This document shows positions 18,283-60,060 of a DNA stretch of 64,000 bases, piece after piece (the first letter of the stretch is position 1; every line of letters starts with the position of its first letter). The stretch lies in assembly GCA_010015585.1 (NCBI GenBank), contig ML975150.1. One strand, written 5' to 3'. This stretch comes from Eremomyces bilateralis CBS 781.70. Taxonomy: Eukaryota. The position numbers were made by a program, and so were the translations under genes. A model generated the notes under the pieces. It saw only the letters and a program-made list of their open reading frames with translations. It made no database searches and was not told where the DNA came from.

Positions 18283-19232
18283 TCAAACCATTCCATGCTC
18301 CGTTTTCCAGGATAACTCGAGTTCGAAGTAGGTGAGTAGATTTGTCAGCATCTCGACCACCTCCCCGTCGAACGTATTCTCAGACAAGGCGGTGATCGTC
18401 AATGCTGCGGCATCCCCAGAAGACTACTTGTTGCCGGAGAGACTGACCAGAGCCAACGCCTCCACGAAGTCGCCGACCTCCCCAACGAACTGGAATTGCG
18501 AAAGGATCTCGCGCAGAGTCCAAATTCCTATGGGCGCGCTCCTAGGGAGGCAAGGGAGCTCACTCAAAGCTAGACGAACCGTCTAACCGTCCTCCCAGGT
18601 ATGAACGAGAACTTCGAGCAGGCGTATAATCCCGTCGACAATGACTTCCTCGTGGAGCCTCAATCGGCTCAGGGTCTCAACAAATTCGGGGGTGACTTCC
18701 GTGCCACGGGCGGCCAAGATCGCAGCCGTTCGGAGAAGTGTGGTCCCAGAGATGTAGCCATTTTCGTCTAAGTTCTCCAGCGCCAACGCCAGAGACGAAA
18801 CGTTGAGACGTTCGATGGCTGGCGGTGCGGTGCTTGGAGGCTCAGTGACCGGAGGGGTGGAGACTGGAGGCCTGGTGACTGGAGGTTTAGTGGTGGGATG
18901 GATGGTGGCCGGCTCGCTATGCGACCAAAGACCGAAGGAACTCGAAGCCTTGTCCATGCCCGGAGGCCTGGGAGAAGGCTGGGTGGCCGGACGTCTGATA
19001 GCCGGCCCATCAAGTAGTGACCAGTATGAAATCGCCGAGGGCGTCGGATCAGTGCTCGTGGAAGAGGTGGTTGGAGTTCGACGAATGTTACTAAGAAGTG
19101 AAATCTGCGAGCTACTAGTCGAGCTACTAGTCGAGCTACTAGTCCAGCTGCCAGTCCGCTGACTTTTTTCTTACGCTCCTTTATCCTGTCGCTCTTCTCC
19201 CGAAGGAGGGCCAGGAGAGCTAGAAGATTCAT
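18283..19232 (-). pseudogene. Disrupted orphan gene (about 315 codons): one frameshift and two in-frame TAG stops
   Basis: MNLLALLALLREKSDRIKERKKK joins a Ser/Thr/Pro-rich frame via a 1-nt shift in an A6 run (about 19164-19169); the frame stays open past TAGs at 18585-18583 and 18426-18424 to TGA at 18285-18283. Confidence 0.5.
19109..19156. repeat. 12-bp tandem repeat GAGCTACTAGTC x3 plus one degenerate copy
   Basis: Directly visible; reads TSSS repeats in the minus-strand pseudogene frame. Confidence 0.85.
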
Positions 19233-47838: not shown

Positions 47839-50800
47839 ATGCCTCCCAAGCAGATCGGAAAGCGTAAGCAGGACGATCTTCCTGCGGGCGATCCCACCGC
47901 GTCCTCAACGCTTCCTTCTGACGATGCTCCTGCCCCTGCGAAGCGAGCGAGGATAACGCGTTCGTCCAAAGCGACCGTGCCTATCGATGAACCAACTCCG
48001 ATGGATATCGATGATCCCGACATCGTCGACGATCCTGATGGTGTCACCGATAACCCTGGCGGCTACAAGCCATCTCCCTCGATCAAGAAACATCAGCCAA
48101 AAACACGGGCTTCTACCAAGGTCAAGGCTCCTCTGGCACGGCAGCAATCCGATGAGAGCGATACTGATGGCGATAATTCAGCGGGTAAGCAGACATTTCA
48201 TTTATCCCCCTTACATCGGCCACCTCATTGTGGCATCCCGATAAGCCATTTAGCAGAATGCAGGATTTCAGGCATGCTTTCTCATCCATTCTGAAGAACA
48301 TCACTGGCTCTGCCACACTGCTTGACAGCTACATATCATACCCTTATCGAATCTCACTACTCTGTCACGTCAACACTGCCCACCAACACAATGTCACACC
48401 AACAAACACACTGCCACGCCAATCCTCCTGGATTTCCAGCTACAGTTCCAGTAAAGCCCCATGATATCGCTTCGATATTCTTGCTGTCGCATAAGGATAT
48501 CGTGACAAGTCACCATTATTATACTTCCCATCGATGCTTCTTATGTTAGCTTGCGACCAGTCAATCAGTCTCCTATCTTCCAATGCCGTCAATTTAAGGC
48601 GCTAGATGTGGTGGCCGACTCGCCTCACTAGTGGCTCGGCGTTTTGGCTTACACAAAAAATGACTTCTGTCCCCGGGATGTCCCCATTATCCAACCACTT
48701 CAGCCAGCCAGTACCCTTCCCCTGAATTTACGCAACATCGTCGCGCGAGCAAAGCCCCTTTTGTACTCTTCATGGATTATACCGATGCCAGCAAAACACA
48801 TTTTACATCGGCGACTTCAAAACAGCTCAACCCCTTTCCTTATGTTAAATTGCTCCGTCATATAGCTTGCATGCCAACAATCTCCCGCTTTATCACCATG
48901 GCCCCCAAGTTTTCCCTCCATTATCCTGGCTCTCCTTACATTCAACGCAATCATTCCTGGAACCTTTTCTTTTTTGGCATCTTCTCACGGTTTTCAATCC
49001 TTTTCGCGAAACCCTTTGCATCAGTGCTCGCTTCCTCCCATCGACTTCTTTCCAAACCCCCCTCATGCTTGTCATTCCAGGTTAAACCATGCGGACTGAA
49101 AGCACCACATTTCTTCTGATGCTAACAACATATAGATGACTCGGGTTCTGTCGATGGAGACGGCGCTGGGAATGCATCAACCAAAGTCCTAGCGCTGAAC
49201 GATGAGCAGAAAATAGCGCTCAAGAAGCCAAAAATCGATTTCTCCCTTGCACCGATAACCGATGTCAAGGACATGTTCGAAGACATGGTAGGGCGTGCAT
49301 TGGGTGCCAACCTGGACGCGGCCGCGGCAAAATTTGGCAACAAGCCGCTCCGTGTTGCGACGATGTGCTCAGGCACAGAGAGTCCCCTTCTTGCATGGAA
49401 AATGATCAATACCGGCCTTGAGAGCAACATGAAACGCCGCATCGAATTTAGTCACGAATTCAGCGCCGAAATCGAGCCGTTCAAGCAAGCCTATATCGAA
49501 CGGAATTTTGATGTTTCACTGTTATTCAAAGACGTCGTCGAGATGACTCGAAAGAAATTCGAGAAGGCGACCACCGCATATGGTAGAGAGGCGGAAATCC
49601 CTGGAAATCTCGATTTCCTCATTGTCGGATTTTCTTGCGTCGACTTTTCGAACCTTAATACCAACAAGAAAACCCTCGAAGCAGACGGGCAATCTGGCCA
49701 AACCTTCCGTGCCGTTATCGGATATGCGGAGAAGTGGTATCCGAATATCATTCTTGTGGAGAACGTCTCGGGATGCAAATGGGACGGGCTCAAAACAAGC
49801 TTCGATGCGATTGGCTACGAGTTCGAGTGGGTGAAAGTAGATACTAAAGACTACTATATTCCGCACACTCGTCAGCGAGGCTATGGCATCGTTGTCCGTC
49901 GTGCAATCTTCAGTAGCCCAACGGATGCGAGGAAAGCGGTAGAAGCTTGGAAACGCCATCTGACAGTAACGTTCAAACGTCCTGCTTCGTCAACATTCAT
50001 CGACTACCTGCTTCCCGAACATGACCCACGAATTCAGAAGGCCAAGTGGGACCGGGCAGCGAAAAAGTCAAATAACACATCTTGGGAAGCGTCTCAGGTC
50101 CGCCATGAAGAAGTGCGCCAAGATTTGGGATTGGGTGACAAACGCGAGTTCCTCAAGTGGGTTTCCAATGGGGGATGCCGACCGCGAGAGTACATGGACA
50201 GAGACTGGATTCTCAGAAGAGCCGAACGAGAATTGGACCTTTTGGAAGTTGTCAACCTTCGGGCGATCTGTGAACTGGAAGTCGACCCTGAATTTAAGGC
50301 GATGGTCTTCGACATTTCACAAAACCCAGAGCGTCTCATGAACGCCTACCCACAACACGTTATCAATTGCATCACGCCACGAGGTGTCAAGTACCTGACC
50401 TACAAGGGCCGTTCGCTTACTGGATTCGAACTTCTTCACCTACAAGGCATTCCCATCGACACAATTTCTCTAACCAACGAGACGGACGAGGAACTGTCCG
50501 ATCTTGCAGGGAACGCGATGAGCACGACTGTCATCGGAGCCTCCATATTGTCCGCCATGTTGGCGGTATTCCCGCTGCGGAACCCGAATCCGGCTAGTTC
50601 TTCGAATACCAAGGATTTGAACGGACACGCAAACAATGGGATTCTACCAGCAAAAAAGCGAGATGAGAAGAAAACGGCGAAGAAGGTCAAAACATTCAAG
50701 TCCGACTTCCACCCTCCCCTGGAGCCGTATGCGGGCGGCGACGACGATCCACGAGCCAAGGATTGGAACCCAGATGTCATGCCCGGCAAATACGACGATG

Positions 50801-53800
50801 AGATAGACGTACCTCGTGTTAGCAATTTCGGATCATATCTTGAAGGCCTTCGAATGAGTCCAAGATATGATGATGTTGAACTCGGAGCAATCGAAAGTGC
50901 CCGAAAGTGCTACTGCGAAGGCTTCGATCGGGTTGCTCCTTCAGCAATCCAGCGTTGCCGTAGCTGCAACCACACCACTTGCGTCACTTGCGGCCAACAT
51001 CCGGAGCACGAGTACCAAGTCGTCACGACGGCGACCAATTTCCCACGGGCACCGAGTCCGCCTCCAAGCCCTAAAATAGTTGGCAAGGAGCCCAAAAAGG
51101 GTTCTGACAAACCTCCTCACGTTGAGCATTGGGATATCAACAACAGAAAGAGTGACGGGAGATTAGAACCCCATGAATTCAAGCAGACGTGGGCAAAATC
51201 GTTTCCGCTCAAGATTCGACTTACAGGATACACTGAGAACCCAACTGGCAGTATAACCTTGAGGGATCGGGTTCAACTACGGACTCGCAATGCTCTTACA
51301 CAGCCCCTGTCGCTAAAGCAGATCATTCGGTCGACAAGTTGGATCGTCCAGTACGGCAATGATGACGCCCGGCTCCAAATAGTCATCAATGACCATTCCC
51401 GCATTCGGTTGTTCATCAAACCTGACCACGCGCTCCCCCTCGGTGACCCCTTGAGGCAGTTTTTGGAACTTTTCCCCGTCGCCGAGTGTCAGTTCAAGTT
51501 TGACTTCTGGAAGCCCAGCTATCGCCAGGAGTGGGAATGGTTAGAGCCATTCGATTGCCCCAGCCTAACTCCAGACAGAAATGTCCTGGAGCAGGCGCCC
51601 CCGATGCCGATCACCATCATCGGCAAAGTCAGAGAATCGCCCTCGGCAAGGGCCCAAACGGGGATTGAGAGGTGGGCCAACGAGACAGTCCCGTCGGAAC
51701 TTGAGATTGACGCCTCAAATTTCGATATGGAACAGCCCTCTTCGAGGACCCGCATCTCCGGGACGTACCGATACCTCCCCAAGTGCGGTACAGCATTCTC
51801 CTGCCTATATTCTTTACAGGGCAGAAGCCAGGGCGAGAACGTCTTCTTTTTCTTGGAGATGTCAAAGTTCGACGGCAAGGAGGCCGATCGATTCGTGTTC
51901 TCCCCGGAGCACGAACGACTAGACGACGGCCAAGTCCGGCCGATAATCGCCTTGCTGAACTCAGCATGGCGCCCCTGGGGTCTACCCATCCAGTCAGACC
52001 ATGCACCCCATCCCCCCTCCCCCTCCCCCGACAAGATCGCGGCGATCTCTGGTGGCAGCACGATGGCCATGGATACGAGTATTGCCCCAGTACTCCGTAT
52101 CCACGGAAAATGGTGCCCAATGGAGACCCGGCTGGAAGTTGTCGACTCCGCCATAACCGTAAAAGGTTATGGCCGGAGCGGCCTTTCGGACCATGACTAT
52201 GGCAGCTGCGATGACCATTTCTCCCTGGTCACAGTACGGGTGCCGCGACCGGAAGTGTGGCAACACACCAAAGCACGGTGGTACACGCTGACGGACGTTG
52301 GCATCCCGGAAGAGCTCGCGGGGAATTTCCTTTGGGCCATTCAAGCAATCCAGAGCGATTTGGGCAAGGACCCCAGACCGATCCCGATTCGAACGATCTC
52401 GAAGGAAGATCTCCCAGCTGCACTTTGTTTCACGTGTGCACCAAGTAAACCGATGACCGTCTGGAAACGCGATACAGACAGGCCGAATGCCACCATGGAA
52501 TCCCTCCTCCCATATGAGGAACCCGCTGTCGCGCGTCGCTACGAGATGAAATTGAAACGGCAACCGCCACGACTGTCAGCGACGGTCAGTGAAGACGGCG
52601 ACTCCCGGCTTTCAGTTCGAGTAAGCGGAAGTATTCGGCTACTCGAGCACATGGCTATATCATTACTGAGCGAGACCTTGGCTGCACCCATCAAACGGAG
52701 CCAGCTCATCGAAATGGGCACAATGTGGCGCCTCGACCCTTTCTTCGTGCCCTCCACTGACCACCACGCTCCCGTATTTACTCTTCAGAGTAACAAGGAG
52801 ACAGCGCCATATGTGAATACCGGTCTCTTCAACGGAAACCTAAAGCTGAGAGACGACCAGCAGCGATCACTCCAATGGATGCTGGAGCAGGAGCGAGGAA
52901 AGGTCTTCGAAGTCGAAGAATGGGAGGAAGCCTGCGTGCAGAAAGTGGGCTGGCGACTGTCCGTTGGAGCAAAGGCAAAGGTCCTTGTCAAGGGCGGTGT
53001 TATCGCTGACCAAGTCTCCTATGGAAAGACCATCATCTCTCTGGGTCTCATCTCCACGGACGTTGTTAAGAAACCAGACGCAAGCCAGAAGGAGTTCAAA
53101 GCCCAGCCAGCGAAGTCACAAACTGAACCCGGCCAGGTTGATGCAACACTGGTTATATGTCCAAGCCACCTAGTCGAGCAATGGGCGGACGAAGCCAAGA
53201 TCTTCCTCCCGAAAGAATACTTTGGCGGGGAAAAGGTCCTAACGGTTAGGACGATCGGTGATCTGAGAAAGATCACTATAGCCAAAGTCCGCAACGCACG
53301 CATAATTGTCCTAAACTGGGACATCTTAACTAACAGTACATACGTGAACGACCTTGCGAAGTTCGCCGCCGTTCCGAAACCGGTCATTTACAAAGGTCGC
53401 GCCTATGCTTCCTACCACGCGACGCTAATGACCGAATTTCAGAAAGAGGCGAGCCGGATGTGGTCTGACAAGGCCGCCTTCACGAAGGAGTTTGCAGGGA
53501 AGCGCCGTCTTGACAAGATGAAAGAAGAGATATTTACAGGGAATCGATTCAGTGAGCCGGCACTGGACCTAAAGGACAAGTTTGTTGGAGTTCCCTTGCA
53601 GGCCTTCAAATTCAGGCGGATTATCGTGGATGAGTTCTCGTACGTGAACGAGAGGACGGATATTGAGAACCGGAAGCAGACACTGCTGATCGAGCTATCT
53701 GCTCTGGAGGCCGAAGCTCGGTGGCTCCTTTCTGGGACCCCTCCGCTATCGACCTTTGAAGATGTCAATCGCGTCGCCACACTCCTTGGCATCAGTCTAG

Positions 53801-55659
53801 GTGTAGCTCGATATACCATGGCAGAGCTGAAGTCGAAGCAGCGCAGCCCAGGCGAGATTTTTGCGCAGTTTAAAGAAGCGCGGAGTACGATGTGGACACA
53901 GGCCCGTAACCGACAAGCGGCCAAATTCCTCGACGTATTCGTCCGACAGAATGAGGCGGACCTCTATGGGGTCGATTGTTACGAGATCATCATGCCCGTA
54001 TACCTCCATCCCGACCACAAAGCGCAATACCTTCAACGCGCGCAGCTGCTCAACATCATTGACAACAATGTCAAAACCGAGGACGACAAGATCTCCCGCT
54101 GTGAGGGACTTCTCGATGGTATGAGCAGCCCGGCATTGGCCTTACAGCAGTCTGCGACGGTGTTCTCGGGAGAAACTCTGAGGGACATACTTTCCGCCCG
54201 GAAAAGCCAGTCCGACAAGATCTTCAATGGTAATTTCACAGGCTTCGTCAAGATAGCCTACGGTTGCTATTGCCAGGCGAATATGGCGAACAAACAGCAG
54301 AAAAGAGCCGATATGACGGAGATCCTGCAGCGGTATGAAACATGGAAACAAGGGACCATAAAGGGTACTTACAACGACCCTGAGTGCACCCGTCGCTTCG
54401 CCTCTCTCATCAAGCATGTGGAGTCTGGTGTAGCGGACACCAGTGTACCCGACAAAGGCGAAGAAGATGGAAAAAACCCTCTGGTTGCCGATTGGAAAAA
54501 ACCCCCCATGTCAAATTTCCGCGAAGTGATTCTCCGTATTCGGAGAGCGGCCAAGGATATTGTTGAACATGAACGAGGGTTGCGCTTCGTGAGACACACG
54601 CAGCGCATGATCGAGCTCGCGCCTTATCTCCCTTCCAACGTTTCGATGGCCTGCAGCAAGTGCAGCGTGCCTACGAATATTTTACGCTTACAAGTCCTCT
54701 CTTTGTGCGGACACATCCTTTGCGACGCATGCCATGGGACCGGAACACCTACGCCTCCATGCACCATTGATGGGTGCGATGGATTCGCCCACAAGATCGT
54801 AGGCGTACGCCTCCACGATCTTATTCCTTCCAAAAAATACCAAGTTCATCCGTTCTCAGGCAAATACGGGGAAAAGTTGTGCAGAGTTGGCCAATTGATC
54901 GAAATGTTTAAAGACGACAAGATTCTGCTCTTCGTGAGCACTACACGTCAACGCGATGAAGCCGTTCGCGTCCTCGATTTCCTCCAGATTGGTCACCTCA
55001 CTCTGTCTTCTGAGGCCCCGTCGAGTGACTCTGCAAGGAAGAAGAAGGCTGGCATTAGCGAGATGATGAAGGACGCAGACGAGAAGCTCGCTCATTTCAA
55101 AACAGAGCCCGAGATGAGAGTCCTGATTCTAAACCAAGGCGACGAATGTGTGGCCGGCGCCAACCTTACCGAGGCACGCCACATCATCTTCCTTTGTCCC
55201 GTGTTGGCCTCGACTCAGCAGGAGTACCGAATGCAAATGTGCCAGGCCATTGGCCGGAGCAGACGATATGGCCAGAAAAATAAAATTTTCGTCTGGAGAT
55301 TCGTCTCCTTACAAACCATTGATGTTGACATCCTGGAGCATAGGGAGCATCGTACGCGGGTTGTGCGGTCTCTTGAGGAAGCGGTCAACCCGGCAAGCTT
55401 TGCTATTTCTCCTCACCCAGCTGACATTCATGCACCTCTACAAGAGCCAGGCTTCAACGAGAAGGTCGGAAGCGTCCTCGAATTAGTGTCGAAGAAGGTG
55501 AAGATACCGGATCCGAAAGATGCGACGAAAACGGTGGAGGTGATAGAGTCTCGCTATGAACTCAACCGGAGTGCGAGGGAAAGGGAGAGCGACGGTGTAG
55601 TCCGAAGAATTGGAAACTTCGCTTCAGCTATCAAACTGACTGCCACATTCTCGGAGTGA
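47839..55659 (+). CDS. DNMT5: DNMT5-family C5 cytosine methyltransferase fused to SNF2 ATPase and RING (often annotated 'Rad8'); exons 47839-48184 and 49136-55659 (about 2290 aa)
   Basis: MTase motifs LRVATMCSGTESP (I), GFSCVDFSNLN (IV), VENV (VI), HTRQRGY (VIII), DLAGNAMS (X); SNF2 motifs GGVIADQVSYGKT, IIVDEF, LSGTP, GANLT, QAIGRSRRYGQ; RING CSKC..CGHILCDAC..CTIDGC; intron GTAAGC...GCTAAC..TAG is in frame. Confidence 0.92.
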
Positions 55660-55892
55660 AGACACAACGTTGATCACGGCGAGAAAGGAGATTACGGGGA
55701 GCGGGGTCCCTTTTGCTTTCATTGTACGGTTCGTCTGCTTGCTTCACGACCGCAGTCCTGTATATCCACCGCCTATCGAGGCCATGGTGTGATGTTGGCG
55801 TGTCGGCCAACACTTGCCCTTGTTTCCCTATCGACCGGAGACGTGGATGGCGACGATGGTATTGCACCTAGCCATAGAAGATAACCGAACCT

Positions 55893-56325
55893 GAGAGGCT
55901 CCTGCAGTGGCCGGGGAACCACTGTGCATGCAAGGTATCGGAAGACGAGAGATGCTACTGAGCTACAAGCATGAGAGACCCTACAGTGGGCTAGGGAACC
56001 GCTGTGCATGTGAGGAATCGGTATCTATATGTGCCAGAGCATGAAGGTGAGCTATTGGCCCGGGGGACTCCTGCAGTGGGTTGGAGAACCGCTGTGCATG
56101 TGAGGAACCGGTGTCCAGACACACGGGGGCGAGTTTTACGGAAGAAAGGGATTGAGAAAGAGGACCGAAGACCTGAGAGGCTTCTGCAGTGGCATGGGGA
56201 ACCATTGCGCATGCGAGATATCGGACGTCTGATGAAAATCTTGTTGGTTGCCGGCCCGAGAGACTCCTGCAGTGGGTTGAGGAACCGCTGCGCATGCGAG
56301 GAATCGGTGTCCGGATGCGCCAGTG
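55893..56325 (+). repeat. Array of five degenerate ~50-bp hairpin-containing repeats with variable linkers
   Basis: Cores start at 55893, 55973, 56062, 56175 and 56258; consensus GAGAGRCTCCTGCAGTGG-N8/9-CCRCTGYGCATGYGAGGWATCGG. Confidence 0.9.
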
Positions 56326-57731
56326 ACGGCCGGGACAACGATTCACGGTAGAGGGATAGGACCCATGGGGGCACGGAAATCAAAAGCTGGAGGGACGATG
56401 TTCAGAACGAGTGGCTGTGTTCACTACGCCATGGCAACGGTTGGAAGGTCACCTGCCCGAGAAGCACTCGAGGATATGACACGATTGACCAGCCACTATT
56501 GGCCTCGTGGCGTGGACGGACGCAACTAGATCCAAGAGCCGTCATGACGACAGGAGATTTGGGCGGGTTTCTCGCTATTCCGACCACTCCGCAAACAGCT
56601 CGCACGGCACCATCGAAACGAAGCCGAAGAATGCCTCACATGATCATTCAAGACAGATATTCCGATACTTCTAAAGGCTTACGCGATGCGTTTCCTTTTT
56701 CCGGCAATCTCCATCGGGAGCGCCTCGCGGACCGACTCGGCAACATCGACATTGCAACTCTCGGGGAACACGCCAAGGGAGAATGCTTCGGATCTGGAAA
56801 GCTCTTCGGTCTTCACGGAGGCAACGAGAGACATCGACCATGAATCACAATAAGCTGGAGAGCACTGGCACTACTTGGCAAGGTTGAATGTATATCAATG
56901 CCATAGTGTAGAGGACGATATCGGACGATCGGATATTCCTGTGCCGTCAATACGCACCATGAAGGTACTCAGATCCCGTCTGCCTTGCTGTGCCTTGCCA
57001 TTGCCATAAGTCATGGAATCCTGTTCTGCCAATCGACTATCAAACCGCACTAACCACTACTTGAACAAGCCAAGCCTAATTCGATGGACGTGCTTACTAT
57101 TCATTCATATCGTGATATCGGACAAAGACTCTCATTCGCTAATTTCCGGAGGCGTGAGAACCGGCAGTGCCCAGTGGGGATATCCAAATTGCAAGCTAGT
57201 GAGATAGTCACGTGCGGGTGCAGCACAGCCCACCCGCCCCGCGTCTGGGCAGCCCGGACTAAACTCCATTCGGCATCGACCGTCTTCATCATGGTTTCCA
57301 CAAGGCTCAGTATTGGGCGCTCGTACATTGTAGGGAGGCGCATCCCGGTCAAACATCACCACGTTCCTTCCGTTGGATCCGCATTCACAGCTTCATGGAG
57401 TGGCCTGACGACACCACAGTACATGCATCCAGTAACCGTTGGAGACGCTTCATCTATTAAGCTCCCTCCATCCGCCGTTCAACTTTCGCTTTCGCTCTGC
57501 ATTCATTCCTCAACCCGAAATCCTTCGATCGCTGTTGAGACTTATACGACATTGTTTGGAGTGAGCATTCTTCCACATCTCTCGAGGGCGTGAGCATTCA
57601 GCATTGCAGCACCAACTCACCTTGAAACAATAAAAGTGTCACACAAAGCCGCTTCCACTCGAAGCCTTCTCGCACCCACATCCGCATCGTCTCACCGACA
57701 ATCTTCCATTGAATCGTCAATTCCAGTAGTC

Positions 57732-58898
57732 ATGGCCTCCAACACTGGCAAAGGACGCGACGCCGGCGATTCGATCAACGGCGCTCCCGCCACTCGTGAA
57801 CCCGAGCCGCTCATCAAGGTGCAACCTCCGCGCCGTGAAGACCTACAGCCCTCGTACGCGCAGGACATCCATCCCGACACAGAGGATGCATCGGCACATG
57901 GCTGGTATGGTGGCATGGTCGACGCTTTCGGACAGGTTATTGGTACCCTGGGTGCCGTTCCGTGCTGCCCCTTCCCGAATCCGTATCGACCTGTCAACCA
58001 GGGCAACGTGGGCTTGGTGACCAAGTTCGGCCGATTCGCCAGGGCGGTTGATCCAGGTCTTGTTAAGGTCAATGTATTGAGCGAGAAGATCATTCAGGTG
58101 GACGTCAAGATTCAGATTGTCGGTATGTGTTTGCGATGCGAAGCTGGTTGATATGCCCAAAGCTGATTGAACCTACAGAGGTCCCGCAACAGGTCTGTAT
58201 GACCAAAGACAACGTCTCTCTCTACCTCACGTCCGTCATCTACTACCGTATCACTTCGCCTCACAAGGCCGCCTTCGGCATCAGCAACATCCGCCAAGCT
58301 CTCGTCGAACGCACACAAACCACGCTGCGTCACGTCGTCGGTGCTCGCCTGCTTCAAGACGTCATCGAACGCCGTGAGGAGATCGCGCAAGACATCCGCA
58401 GCATCGTCGAGGAAATCGCGGCCGGCTGGGGCGTGGACGTGGAAAGTATGCTCATCAAGGATCTGATTTTCAGCCAAGACCTCCAAGACTCGCTGTCCAT
58501 GGCGGCGCAGAGCAAGCGAACGGGAGAAGCCAAGGTCATCGCCGCGCGTGCGGAAGTCGAGAGCGCCAAGTTGATGAGGCAGGCCGCCGATATCTTGTCC
58601 AGCGCACCGGCCATGCAGATTCGATACCTCGAGGCCATGCAGCAGATGGCAAAATCTGCCAATAGATAAGTCCCTTCGCTTCCTCAACACACCCCTGCAT
58701 GCTAACTTTCTTTGTACTAAGGTGATCTTTTTGCCGTCCAGCAACCAAGGCGTCACGGAACAGATGACTCGCCTTGCCGATGGCCCTGAAGGGAGCAATT
58801 ATGGAGGTGGTGAAGGCAGCAGTGCCGCGCAGGAATATGGACATGGGAATGATGGGATGCAAAGGGCGATCAACTCGGCTGTCATTGAACGCATGTAG
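57732..58898 (+). CDS. Stomatin-family SPFH/band-7 protein; exons 57732-58122, 58179-58665, 58718-58898 (second intron AT-AC)
   Basis: VNQGNVGLVTKFG, EVPQQVCMTKDNVS, QTTLRHVVG, AMQIRYLEAMQQMAKSAN|SKVIFLP. Confidence 0.92.
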
Positions 58899-59418
58899 AG
58901 AAAGTTCTACAACTGCGATCGTTTGGCGGCTGCGGAAAGGGAATGGAGCTGGGAATCTGGGTTTCTTTCTGTTTTAATAATGTTTGGGCTGCTTCGGGAA
59001 ATTTGGTGTTCATATTTGGGGCACTCGTAGCGATGGGAATCGGGGAGACAGGACGCGGAGATTGATCTCGTTGTCGCCATTCCTCTCATCAGTCGTTTCA
59101 GATACCCAATTGCAACTCGGATTTTCGTTCGTCACACAAATCAGATCCTTTGCTTTCATGACATGCGTCTCAATTGACTAGATATCGCAGCCGTCGGCAC
59201 TTCTCTGGCGAAGCGTGATGGATATCGGCGCTTCGGTTCACATACACACAATGGACCTGCAGCATTGATTCATCTGGCGCTCAGACACGGATGCTTCGCC
59301 AGTTCATGTGCATTTCAACCAGCTACATAATGCATATTTTTCGTGAAAGCAGACCCGATGATCGCAGTAATGCCAGCCGTTCCACGCCCATGATGAAAGG
59401 AAATCCTTATCGAATCCT

Positions 59419-60060
59419 TTAGAACCCTGATCATCCGTTAATATTCCACCCATAAAATTCACGGGGGGCGGAAAACACTTACGCAACGCAGTGAAGAACC
59501 ACCGGTTCTTCCCACTCTGGTACCGCTCCTCCAACGTCTTCTTGATGTTCTTCTTTGCCTCCTCCCGTTGGCTCACCTCCTTGAACGTGTCGTTGTTGAC
59601 GGCGCCCTTCAGGCCCTCGAGGTCCAGGGTGTAACGGGTCGGCATCAGGTGGTTGTAGTTGATGACCTTGATGAACGGCTTGACCTTGGAGCGGCGGGTG
59701 ACGCGGGCAGCGGACATGCGGCGGGTGACTTTGGATGGGTAGCGCTCGATGCCGGCGACGAGGGCGTGCGGGAAGGGGTGGGACTTGTTGCCTGAGTCTT
59801 GGGGCTGGATGATCACGACCTGGAGGGCGCGCTGTTAGAACACTGATGGCTTCATCGTCTCGTTTCTGCGTTCATCGACTCTGGGGAATATTTCCCGGTC
59901 CGCGGGTTCGCACGGCGTCATGAGGGAGTGTTCGGTGCGTACCTTCTTGCCGGCATATCGTCCTCTTGTGACAATGGCCACACGGCCAACTTTCATGACT
60001 ATCGCACGGCGTTAGCAATTTTCCTCATGCAATCGATACATCGTCAAACTTACACTTCAT
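59419..60060 (-). CDS. RPL27: 60S ribosomal protein eL27; exons 60060-60054, 59998-59943, 59819-59483, 59426-59419
   Basis: Spliced [27 protein letters not shown]...[17 protein letters not shown]...[12 protein letters not shown]. Confidence 0.97.

Follow-up and report, generated by a model that had tools for sequence, protein, structure and literature searches.

Background

Beside a DNMT5-type DNA methyltransferase gene of the fungus Eremomyces bilateralis CBS 781.70, a non-coding stretch carries five direct copies of a core of 60–67 nucleotides (nt), all on the same strand. The question raised by this locus is what kind of element the array represents: a structured RNA that belongs to the methyltransferase gene, or a tandem repeat that lies next to the gene and whose unit happens to be palindromic. 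A preliminary description of the sequence had argued for the former, i.e., an array of hairpins in a 3' UTR or non-coding RNA, physically coupled to DNMT5, in which every variant of the stem keeps Watson-Crick or G-U pairing on the plus strand and would produce A-C mismatches on the minus strand. Our search of the literature found no description of such an element.

In the present work, we characterize the array within the window (by which we mean the whole 64,000-nt stretch of contig ML975150.1 that was analyzed) and in the contigs of the same genome, and we weigh the reading as a passively carried repeat against three rival explanations. If the core proves to be under selection, what lies beside, and perhaps on the mRNA of, a CG maintenance methylase would be a modular element of RNA or DNA that has newly arisen. 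As things stand, the array is an orphan repeat, clearly defined, in a fungal lineage that is isolated.

Results

The array and the genes on either side

The upstream gene is represented in the window by its last long exon (49126–55659, plus strand), an open reading frame (ORF) of 2177 codons with its stop at 55657–55659. Pfam matches within it are DNA_methylase (PF00145, 1.4e-17, residues 96–471) and SNF2-rel_dom (PF00176, 1.5e-14, from residue 1245). A C5 DNA methyltransferase domain and an SNF2-type ATPase thus lie in one polypeptide, the combination given for DNMT5 in bioRxiv 10.1101/2020.01.05.895227. The ORF corresponds to the C-terminal part of a public 2289-residue protein of E. bilateralis CBS 781.70, with 2174 of 2174 residues identical and the same last residue. 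PF00145 and PF00176 are common to all of its top-listed relatives, many of which have PF00271 as well. The next best relative among those listed is only 35% identical, over the C-terminal third, from which we conclude that the lineage is isolated.

The first repeat unit begins about 230 nt past the stop codon. The intervening 225-nt spacer (55660–55884, plus strand) is unique sequence containing neither a repeat copy nor a covariance-model match, with a CpG observed/expected ratio (o/e) of 1.11 and a GC skew near zero. The distance of 234 nt given in the preliminary description is right for the position from which it counted, 55893. On the 3' side, the array is followed by unique sequence without a convincing ORF (56315–57138). 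The next gene downstream encodes a stomatin/SPFH (Band 7) protein (57516–58700, plus strand; Pfam Band_7, 1e-24), and the RNA-like contigs described below begin over it at 57516, 1.2 kb from the end of the array. Only short ORFs are present between the array and this gene, none of them with a Pfam match, and a 99-residue ORF among them (56544–56840) returned no relatives.

The repeat search and a covariance model agree on five plus-strand copies of the core at 55885–56314, which bears out the earlier claim of five core copies downstream of DNMT5. In the repeat search, a 33-nt family has five copies, at 55909, 55989, 56079, 56192 and 56275, and a 63-nt family has four copies. The covariance model was built from an alignment of five units of 64–65 nt and searched over both strands of the whole 64-kb window with filters off. 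We refer to the units as c1 (55885–55948, 72.7 bits), c2 (55964–56028, 74.9 bits), c3 (56054–56118, 84.0 bits), c4 (56167–56231, 77.4 bits) and c5 (56250–56314, 87.2 bits), all on the plus strand. The five score 72.7–87.2 bits, versus 13.6 bits for the next best among the 20 matches listed. A degenerate pattern of the core matches four times in the window where 0.01 matches are expected, and a count of four was reached in none of 100 shuffles; c1 escapes this pattern because its loop is 1 nt shorter than that of the other units. From the score gap and the pattern counts, we conclude that the array is real and unique in the window.

Tandem Repeats Finder did not report the array even at a score of 30, as the indels between copies and the diverged linkers make it invisible to this program. 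No other local direct repeats scanned in the window form a comparable array. A 12-nt unit is present as three to four perfect tandem repeats at 19108–19155.

The copies are arranged head to tail in one orientation, as in a tandem repeat or minisatellite, with start-to-start spacings of 80, 90, 113 and 83 nt. Three of these had been given correctly before; the second had been given as 89, and the accompanying statement that no spacing is a multiple of 3 holds for 80, 113 and 83 but fails for 90. The conclusion drawn from it, that this is not a peptide repeat, nevertheless stands, because spacings of 80, 113 and 83 shift the reading frame and because the ORFs over the array, those on the minus strand included, have neither Pfam matches nor relatives in translated searches. 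One match of an array ORF to a plant-type leucine-rich repeat, the only one among 1.84 billion representatives, extends over just 25–31 residues and was discarded as spurious.

Subtypes and build of the array

The cores are 67–82% identical over the ten pairwise comparisons, versus 28–52% for the linkers, so the linkers are far more divergent than the cores, as had been described. The division into two subtypes is likewise recovered: subtype A comprises c1 and c4 (81% identical), and subtype B comprises c2, c3 and c5 (77–82%, with c3 and c5 at 82%), while identities between subtypes are 67–75%. When the c1-c2 dimer is aligned with the c4-c5 dimer, 105 of 139 positions are identical, and this likeness of dimer to dimer indicates that the array is built as A-B, B, A-B. 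Within the dimer alignment, the cores have 95 of 113 positions identical versus 32 of 56 for the remainder (Fisher p = 2.6e-4). For the inner linker, the likeness is that expected by chance, with an identity of 0.43 versus 0.46 for shuffles, 369 of 500 of which reach the observed value.

Each core is an imperfect palindrome with conserved arms around a variable center. The stems read as the preliminary description gave them, with RCAGTGG opposite CCACTG, CCGCTG or CCATTG. Columns that are invariant in all five copies include unpaired motifs, namely GCATG directly 3' of the stem, GAA where the loop ends, and CGG. The invariance of GCATG and GAA outside the stem suggests, at the level of the sequence, that the core may be recognized in a sequence-specific manner.

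Neutral decay predicts that cores and linkers erode equally. The contrast between them, taken together with a 67-nt near-identical twin of one unit at another locus (see below), therefore points to constraint on the core, conversion between copies, or mobility.

Base composition and substitution pattern

The plus strand of the array is G-rich (G 0.36, C 0.22). A sharp, positive GC skew of 0.22–0.35 is limited to about 55900–56400, i.e., the array and approximately 100 nt beyond it, and the skew is near zero on either side. Among 54 core columns, 22 are variable; 18 of the 22 are pure transitions, and seven of those are at CpG sites. Seven variable core columns read as alternations of CpG, TpG and CpA.

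Over 55885–56325, the CpG o/e is 0.74 and the TpG+CpA o/e is 1.32, against a window mean CpG o/e of 1.04 (standard deviation 0.16) and values near 1.0–1.1 in the flanks. This mild depletion of CpG with an excess of TpG and CpA would fit methylation-driven or RIP-like decay, here beside the gene for a CG maintenance methylase. Decay from CpG to TpG and CpA next to DNMT5 raises the question of whether the repeat is itself methylated.

Folding and strand preference

On the plus strand, RNAalifold predicts a consensus hairpin of 16 pairs with an energy of −15.16 kcal/mol. Its three stems are an outer one of 4 bp, a middle one and an apical one of 8 bp. The consensus on the minus strand reaches −7.16 kcal/mol. 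Each core is able to form the hairpin. Standard pairs occupy 76 of 78 pair cells (97.4%), and two pairs are changed on both sides. Covariation is not above that of column shuffles, 123 of 500 of which reach the observed pairing statistics in this comparison of five sequences only, where power is low. 

Individual units fold at −14.3 to −28.5 kcal/mol, with z-scores of −2.00 to +0.41 on the plus strand and −0.97 to +0.47 on the minus strand. By unit, the plus-strand z-scores are −1.12 for c1 (−21.7 kcal/mol), +0.41 for c2 (−14.3 kcal/mol), −0.72 for c3, −0.91 for c4 and −2.00 for c5 (−28.5 kcal/mol), the last being both the most CpG-rich and the best-folding unit. The whole 446-nt array is no more stable than its dinucleotide shuffles (plus strand, z = +0.46; minus strand, z = +0.85). 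In absolute terms the plus strand is the more stable, but so are its shuffles, and we attribute the difference to composition. The full extended hairpin is kept in c5 alone and the outer stems are gone in c2, a pattern that looks like decay from a palindromic ancestor rather than maintenance of a structure.

These results bear on the argument that G-U pairs are tolerated on the plus strand only. The plus strand does pair better in the consensus. The wobble argument itself is weak, since a transition in a Watson-Crick pair produces G-U on one strand and A-C on the other, so that about half of such changes favor a given strand by chance, and since most changes here are transitions on a G-rich strand. 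By a hand count from the pair table, five of six independent single changes favor the plus strand (one-sided binomial, about 0.11), which leaves the argument suggestive rather than decisive. Apparent strand-specific variation of hairpins through G-U pairs should be read with caution more generally, as it can stem from transition and CpG bias on a G-rich strand. The earlier proposal of a structured RNA thus keeps part of its basis: the array is non-coding and capable of forming hairpins, pairs better on the plus strand and has conserved cores, but neither its covariation nor its fold stability exceeds that of shuffles.

Transcription

One sequencing run was judged RNA-like on account of its depth range, its adapter-bearing loose ends and the hundreds of tiny contigs over the stomatin gene. 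Within 4 kb, its summed depth climbs from 62 (DNMT5) to about 3e5 (stomatin gene). A 5109-nt contig of this run is colinear with the window from a point within the DNMT5 ORF, across all five units, up to 57138, with no differing letters and no gaps over 54500–57138, and it takes in the unique sequence 3' of the array. The array is therefore present in the RNA-like library on an unspliced piece continuous with DNMT5, where the contig informs on neither the strand nor the presence of a single transcript. A colinear RNA-like contig through the array makes its transcription likely.

The depth of this run is slightly higher over c2–c3 (64.4 versus 62.4), which hints, with little weight, that the second locus described below is also in the RNA-like library at low depth. 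The run has no cover over 57139–57515. Over the stomatin gene, its contigs begin at 57516, where a loose end carries adapter sequence; this suggests that a stomatin transcript, very strongly represented, starts near that position.

Copies elsewhere

We compared the genome contigs of a sequencing run that may be the source of this DNA with 54500–58500 at a likeness of at least 80%, a threshold below which more diverged copies would fall. A 53-kb contig covers the present stretch, and on a distinct contig of 41.5 kb from the same genome lie two more copies of the core, approximately 120 nt apart. Both align with c3: one differs from it at 2 of 67 letters (56048–56114) and the other at 6 of 58 (56058–56115). 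The two copies share one orientation and are again in tandem. Neither the 53 letters separating them nor the outer flank on either side resembles the DNMT5 locus. By eye, the loose end after the second copy opens with what looks like the 5' edge of another unit, one that has diverged further.

At this threshold, the genome contigs thus hold seven copies, five beside DNMT5 and two on one other contig, so this is not a high-copy element. The two copies on the 41.5-kb contig also mean that the repeat is not specific to DNMT5, which undermines the physical coupling that the preliminary description had proposed. That description had itself named, as the outcome that would speak against it, a dispersed core unlinked to DNMT5, a lack of transcription and no array at syntenic DNMT5 loci; of this, unlinked copies of the core are what we find.

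Beyond this genome, a strict pattern of the core returned no loci in metagenome contigs, prokaryote genome contigs or viral contigs. A looser pattern returned 42 loci in metagenome contigs, with one match each, which the covariance-model scores mark as chance matches: 21 matches have E ≤ 1 with a best score of 23.1 bits, the best-scoring ones span just the positions fixed by the pattern, and those that are nominally full-length score at most 16.2 bits.

Comparison with known classes

Several known classes of element were considered. Rfam 15 gave no match at the gathering score in the whole window and none at E ≤ 10 in 55600–56700. ARAGORN found no tRNA genes in 55000–57600, and in the absence of a cloverleaf a tRNA or tRNA-derived SINE was rejected. 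The boxes that define snoRNAs are C (RUGAUGA), D (CUGA), H (ANANNA) and ACA. By eye, no such box is common to all five units: TGATGA follows c4 alone, and CTGA lies at the 5' edge of c1 and c4 but of no other unit. A C/D or H/ACA snoRNA cluster was rejected.

Among binding-site classes examined by eye, CNGG loops of the Smaug/Vts1 type fit c1 only, Pol III A and B boxes fit poorly and would be adjacent, and pairs of CGG of the Zn-cluster kind are about 44 bp apart. Sites of the Whi3/Rbfox type, (U)GCAU(G), are present in all five copies; this candidate was dropped as well. A MITE or foldback transposon was rejected as well, with seven copies at a likeness of at least 80%, one orientation per array, and no target-site duplications by eye.

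The array resembles a minisatellite with higher-order structure. It is head to tail with a period of about 80–113 bp and a duplicated A-B dimer, its copies have diverged, and it appears restricted to its lineage, with no relatives in the collections searched. It differs in that core and linker have diverged at very different rates and in that a near-identical core occurs at an unlinked locus, neither of which a plain neutral minisatellite predicts.

Polycistronic snoRNA clusters of fungi and plants share with the array tandem units of small-RNA size on one strand, free spacers and a Pol II-transcribed stretch, but the array lacks conserved C/D or H/ACA boxes (by eye) and any Rfam match at E ≤ 10. 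Fungal MITEs and foldback elements share the small palindromic hairpin unit, the presence at more than one locus and the unlike flanks. The array differs from them in its very few copies, its single orientation, its regular tandem arrangement and the duplication of the A-B dimer as a block, and no terminal inverted repeats or target-site duplications were recognized in it.

Discussion

The explanation that we prefer, and to which we assign a little less than an even chance, is that the array is a lineage-restricted, low-copy, non-coding tandem repeat with a hairpin core, which grew by dimer duplication, decayed through transitions, is transcribed passively and is not specific to DNMT5. The family would consist of units of about 80–113 bp arranged head to tail, each with an imperfectly palindromic core of 60–67 bp. 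The array most likely expanded when an A-B dimer was duplicated or unequally exchanged, with one extra B unit. Later changes in the copies would have been mostly transitions, many of them at CpG sites, while the stretches between cores would have been randomized by indels and substitutions. The likeness of the cores may have been kept by constraint or by short-tract conversion between copies, including those at the second, unlinked locus. The stretch downstream of DNMT5 appears to be transcribed, and RNA from it probably includes the array; on this RNA each core could form a hairpin capped by the 8-bp stem, a candidate structure that would be intrinsic to the palindromic unit. The proximity to DNMT5 would then be positional rather than functional, and it is in this sense that we infer an absence of function.

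Several observations go against such a passive repeat. The cores are far more alike than the linkers, the 67-nt twin has 2 differences in the midst of unlike flanks, the plus strand pairs better than the minus strand, and there are invariant motifs outside the stems. Passive carriage leaves unexplained both the likeness of the cores against randomized linkers and the origin of the twin, and for this reason three rival explanations remain.

The best surviving of these, which we regard as unlikely though deserving of serious consideration, is that the five cores are candidate protein-binding hairpins that together would form a multivalent platform controlling mRNA stability, localization or translation. 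The module would comprise the apical 8-bp stem, the invariant GCAUG just 3' of it and the GAA at the end of the loop, and its carrier would be an unusually long DNMT5 3' UTR (up to about 1.5 kb) or an overlapping non-coding RNA. The RNA-like contig running colinearly from the DNMT5 ORF through the array to 57138 counts in favor of such a carrier, although contigs do not show the strand of the RNA. The consensus fold of −15.16 kcal/mol on the plus strand versus −7.16 kcal/mol on the minus strand, the 97.4% of pair cells that are paired and the two pairs changed on both sides all point the same way, but the covariation does not rise above shuffles, there is no thermodynamic excess, and the strand preference is largely explained by G-richness and transition bias. 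Conservation of the cores beside randomized linkers, with unpaired motifs that are invariant, also favors a module, as does the near-identical core within unlike flanks at the second locus; the loss of the outer stems in c2 and the lack of an Rfam family count against it.

If it exists, such a module may work like the A-repeat of Xist, with the second locus being another RNA that carries the same module. The A-repeat has been described as 7.5 copies of a 26-nt hairpin motif with U-rich linkers (PMC2602763). Like it, the array has several conserved cores that form hairpins and are set apart by linkers of low conservation, all on the same strand of a non-coding region, and there is a thematic link to epigenetic silencing; the A-repeat would be an analogue in its working and not a relative. 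The differences are considerable. The core of the array is 60–67 nt rather than 26 nt, its linkers are not U-rich, there is no sequence similarity and the host is a fungus; furthermore, the core also occurs at a second, unlinked locus.

A more specific version of the same idea would make the cores modules of a fungal multivalent RNA scaffold. Each would consist of a hairpin with a purine-rich loop and, after it, the invariant GCAUG, and would be occupied by a single molecule of an RNA-binding protein. The five on the DNMT5 3' UTR or on an overlapping long non-coding RNA would govern what becomes of the methyltransferase mRNA or bring factors to it. By analogy with the A-repeat this is conceivable, but we consider it decidedly improbable. 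Were it true, the second array would place another transcript under the same control, giving a small post-transcriptional regulon, born in this lineage, with the maintenance DNA methylase among its members.

The second rival, which we find improbable, holds that the array acts as DNA, as a cis element between two tandem genes. In one form it would be an array of factor sites, with inverted half-sites CAGTGG/CCRYTG around a variable center of 8–9 bp and a GCATG(C) palindrome, and a variable center between conserved arms does suit a dimeric DNA binder as well as it suits an RNA loop; units of 60–67 bp are, on the other hand, long for factor sites, and no known motif was matched by any tool. In the other form, the array would be a G-skewed pause or termination zone, prone to R-loops, that would stop DNMT5 transcription and protect the stomatin gene downstream, which is strongly represented. 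We count in favor the idea that G-rich, R-loop-prone zones 3' of poly(A) sites aid termination, together with the confinement of the GC skew of 0.22–0.35 to about 55900–56400 and the position of the array, 0.23–0.66 kb after the stop codon, with the contigs of the next gene starting 1.2 kb farther on. As the RNA-like contig extends past the array as far as 57138, we see no evidence of termination at the array itself.

The third rival, that the units are tiny foldback (MITE-like) insertions or novel snoRNA- or milRNA-like genes cut from one precursor, we hold to be the least probable of all. In its favor are the imperfectly palindromic form of every unit, the lack of relationship among the flanks that separate them, the twin at the other locus, which has 2 of 67 letters changed and unlike flanks, and a spacing of 80–113 nt, within the size range of small RNAs. 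Against it, the five copies here and the two there share one orientation, their ends show no clear terminal inverted repeats or target-site duplications by eye, seven copies at a likeness of at least 80% are far below the copy numbers of MITEs, insertion leaves the duplication of the A-B dimer itself unexplained, C, D and H/ACA boxes are not conserved (by eye, with TGATGA after c4 only), and there is no tRNA and no Rfam match even at E ≤ 10.

The neighborhood in other organisms

In the run of a relative, the matches at a likeness of at least 80% are confined to coding parts (54916–55276 and 57803–58500). At this threshold neither this run nor that of another organism, described below, has any cover over the array, a comparison that carries no weight as to the presence of the array. 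The DNMT5 piece (54916–55276) and the stomatin piece (57803–58500) lie on different contigs of 49 kb and 93 kb, on opposite strands, and judging from these sequences the pairing of DNMT5 with the stomatin gene may not be conserved in the relative. Beyond the stomatin gene in the window, an ORF on the minus strand (59304–59834) resembles ribosomal protein L27, a name given by eye from its translation.

The run of this other organism contains short contigs at a depth of 3–7 with no differences from the stomatin gene at 57508–57713 and 58178–58473. The same run also has its own diverged stomatin copy, with 43 differences in 218 letters, and the contigs with no differences look like carry-over between libraries rather than shared DNA.
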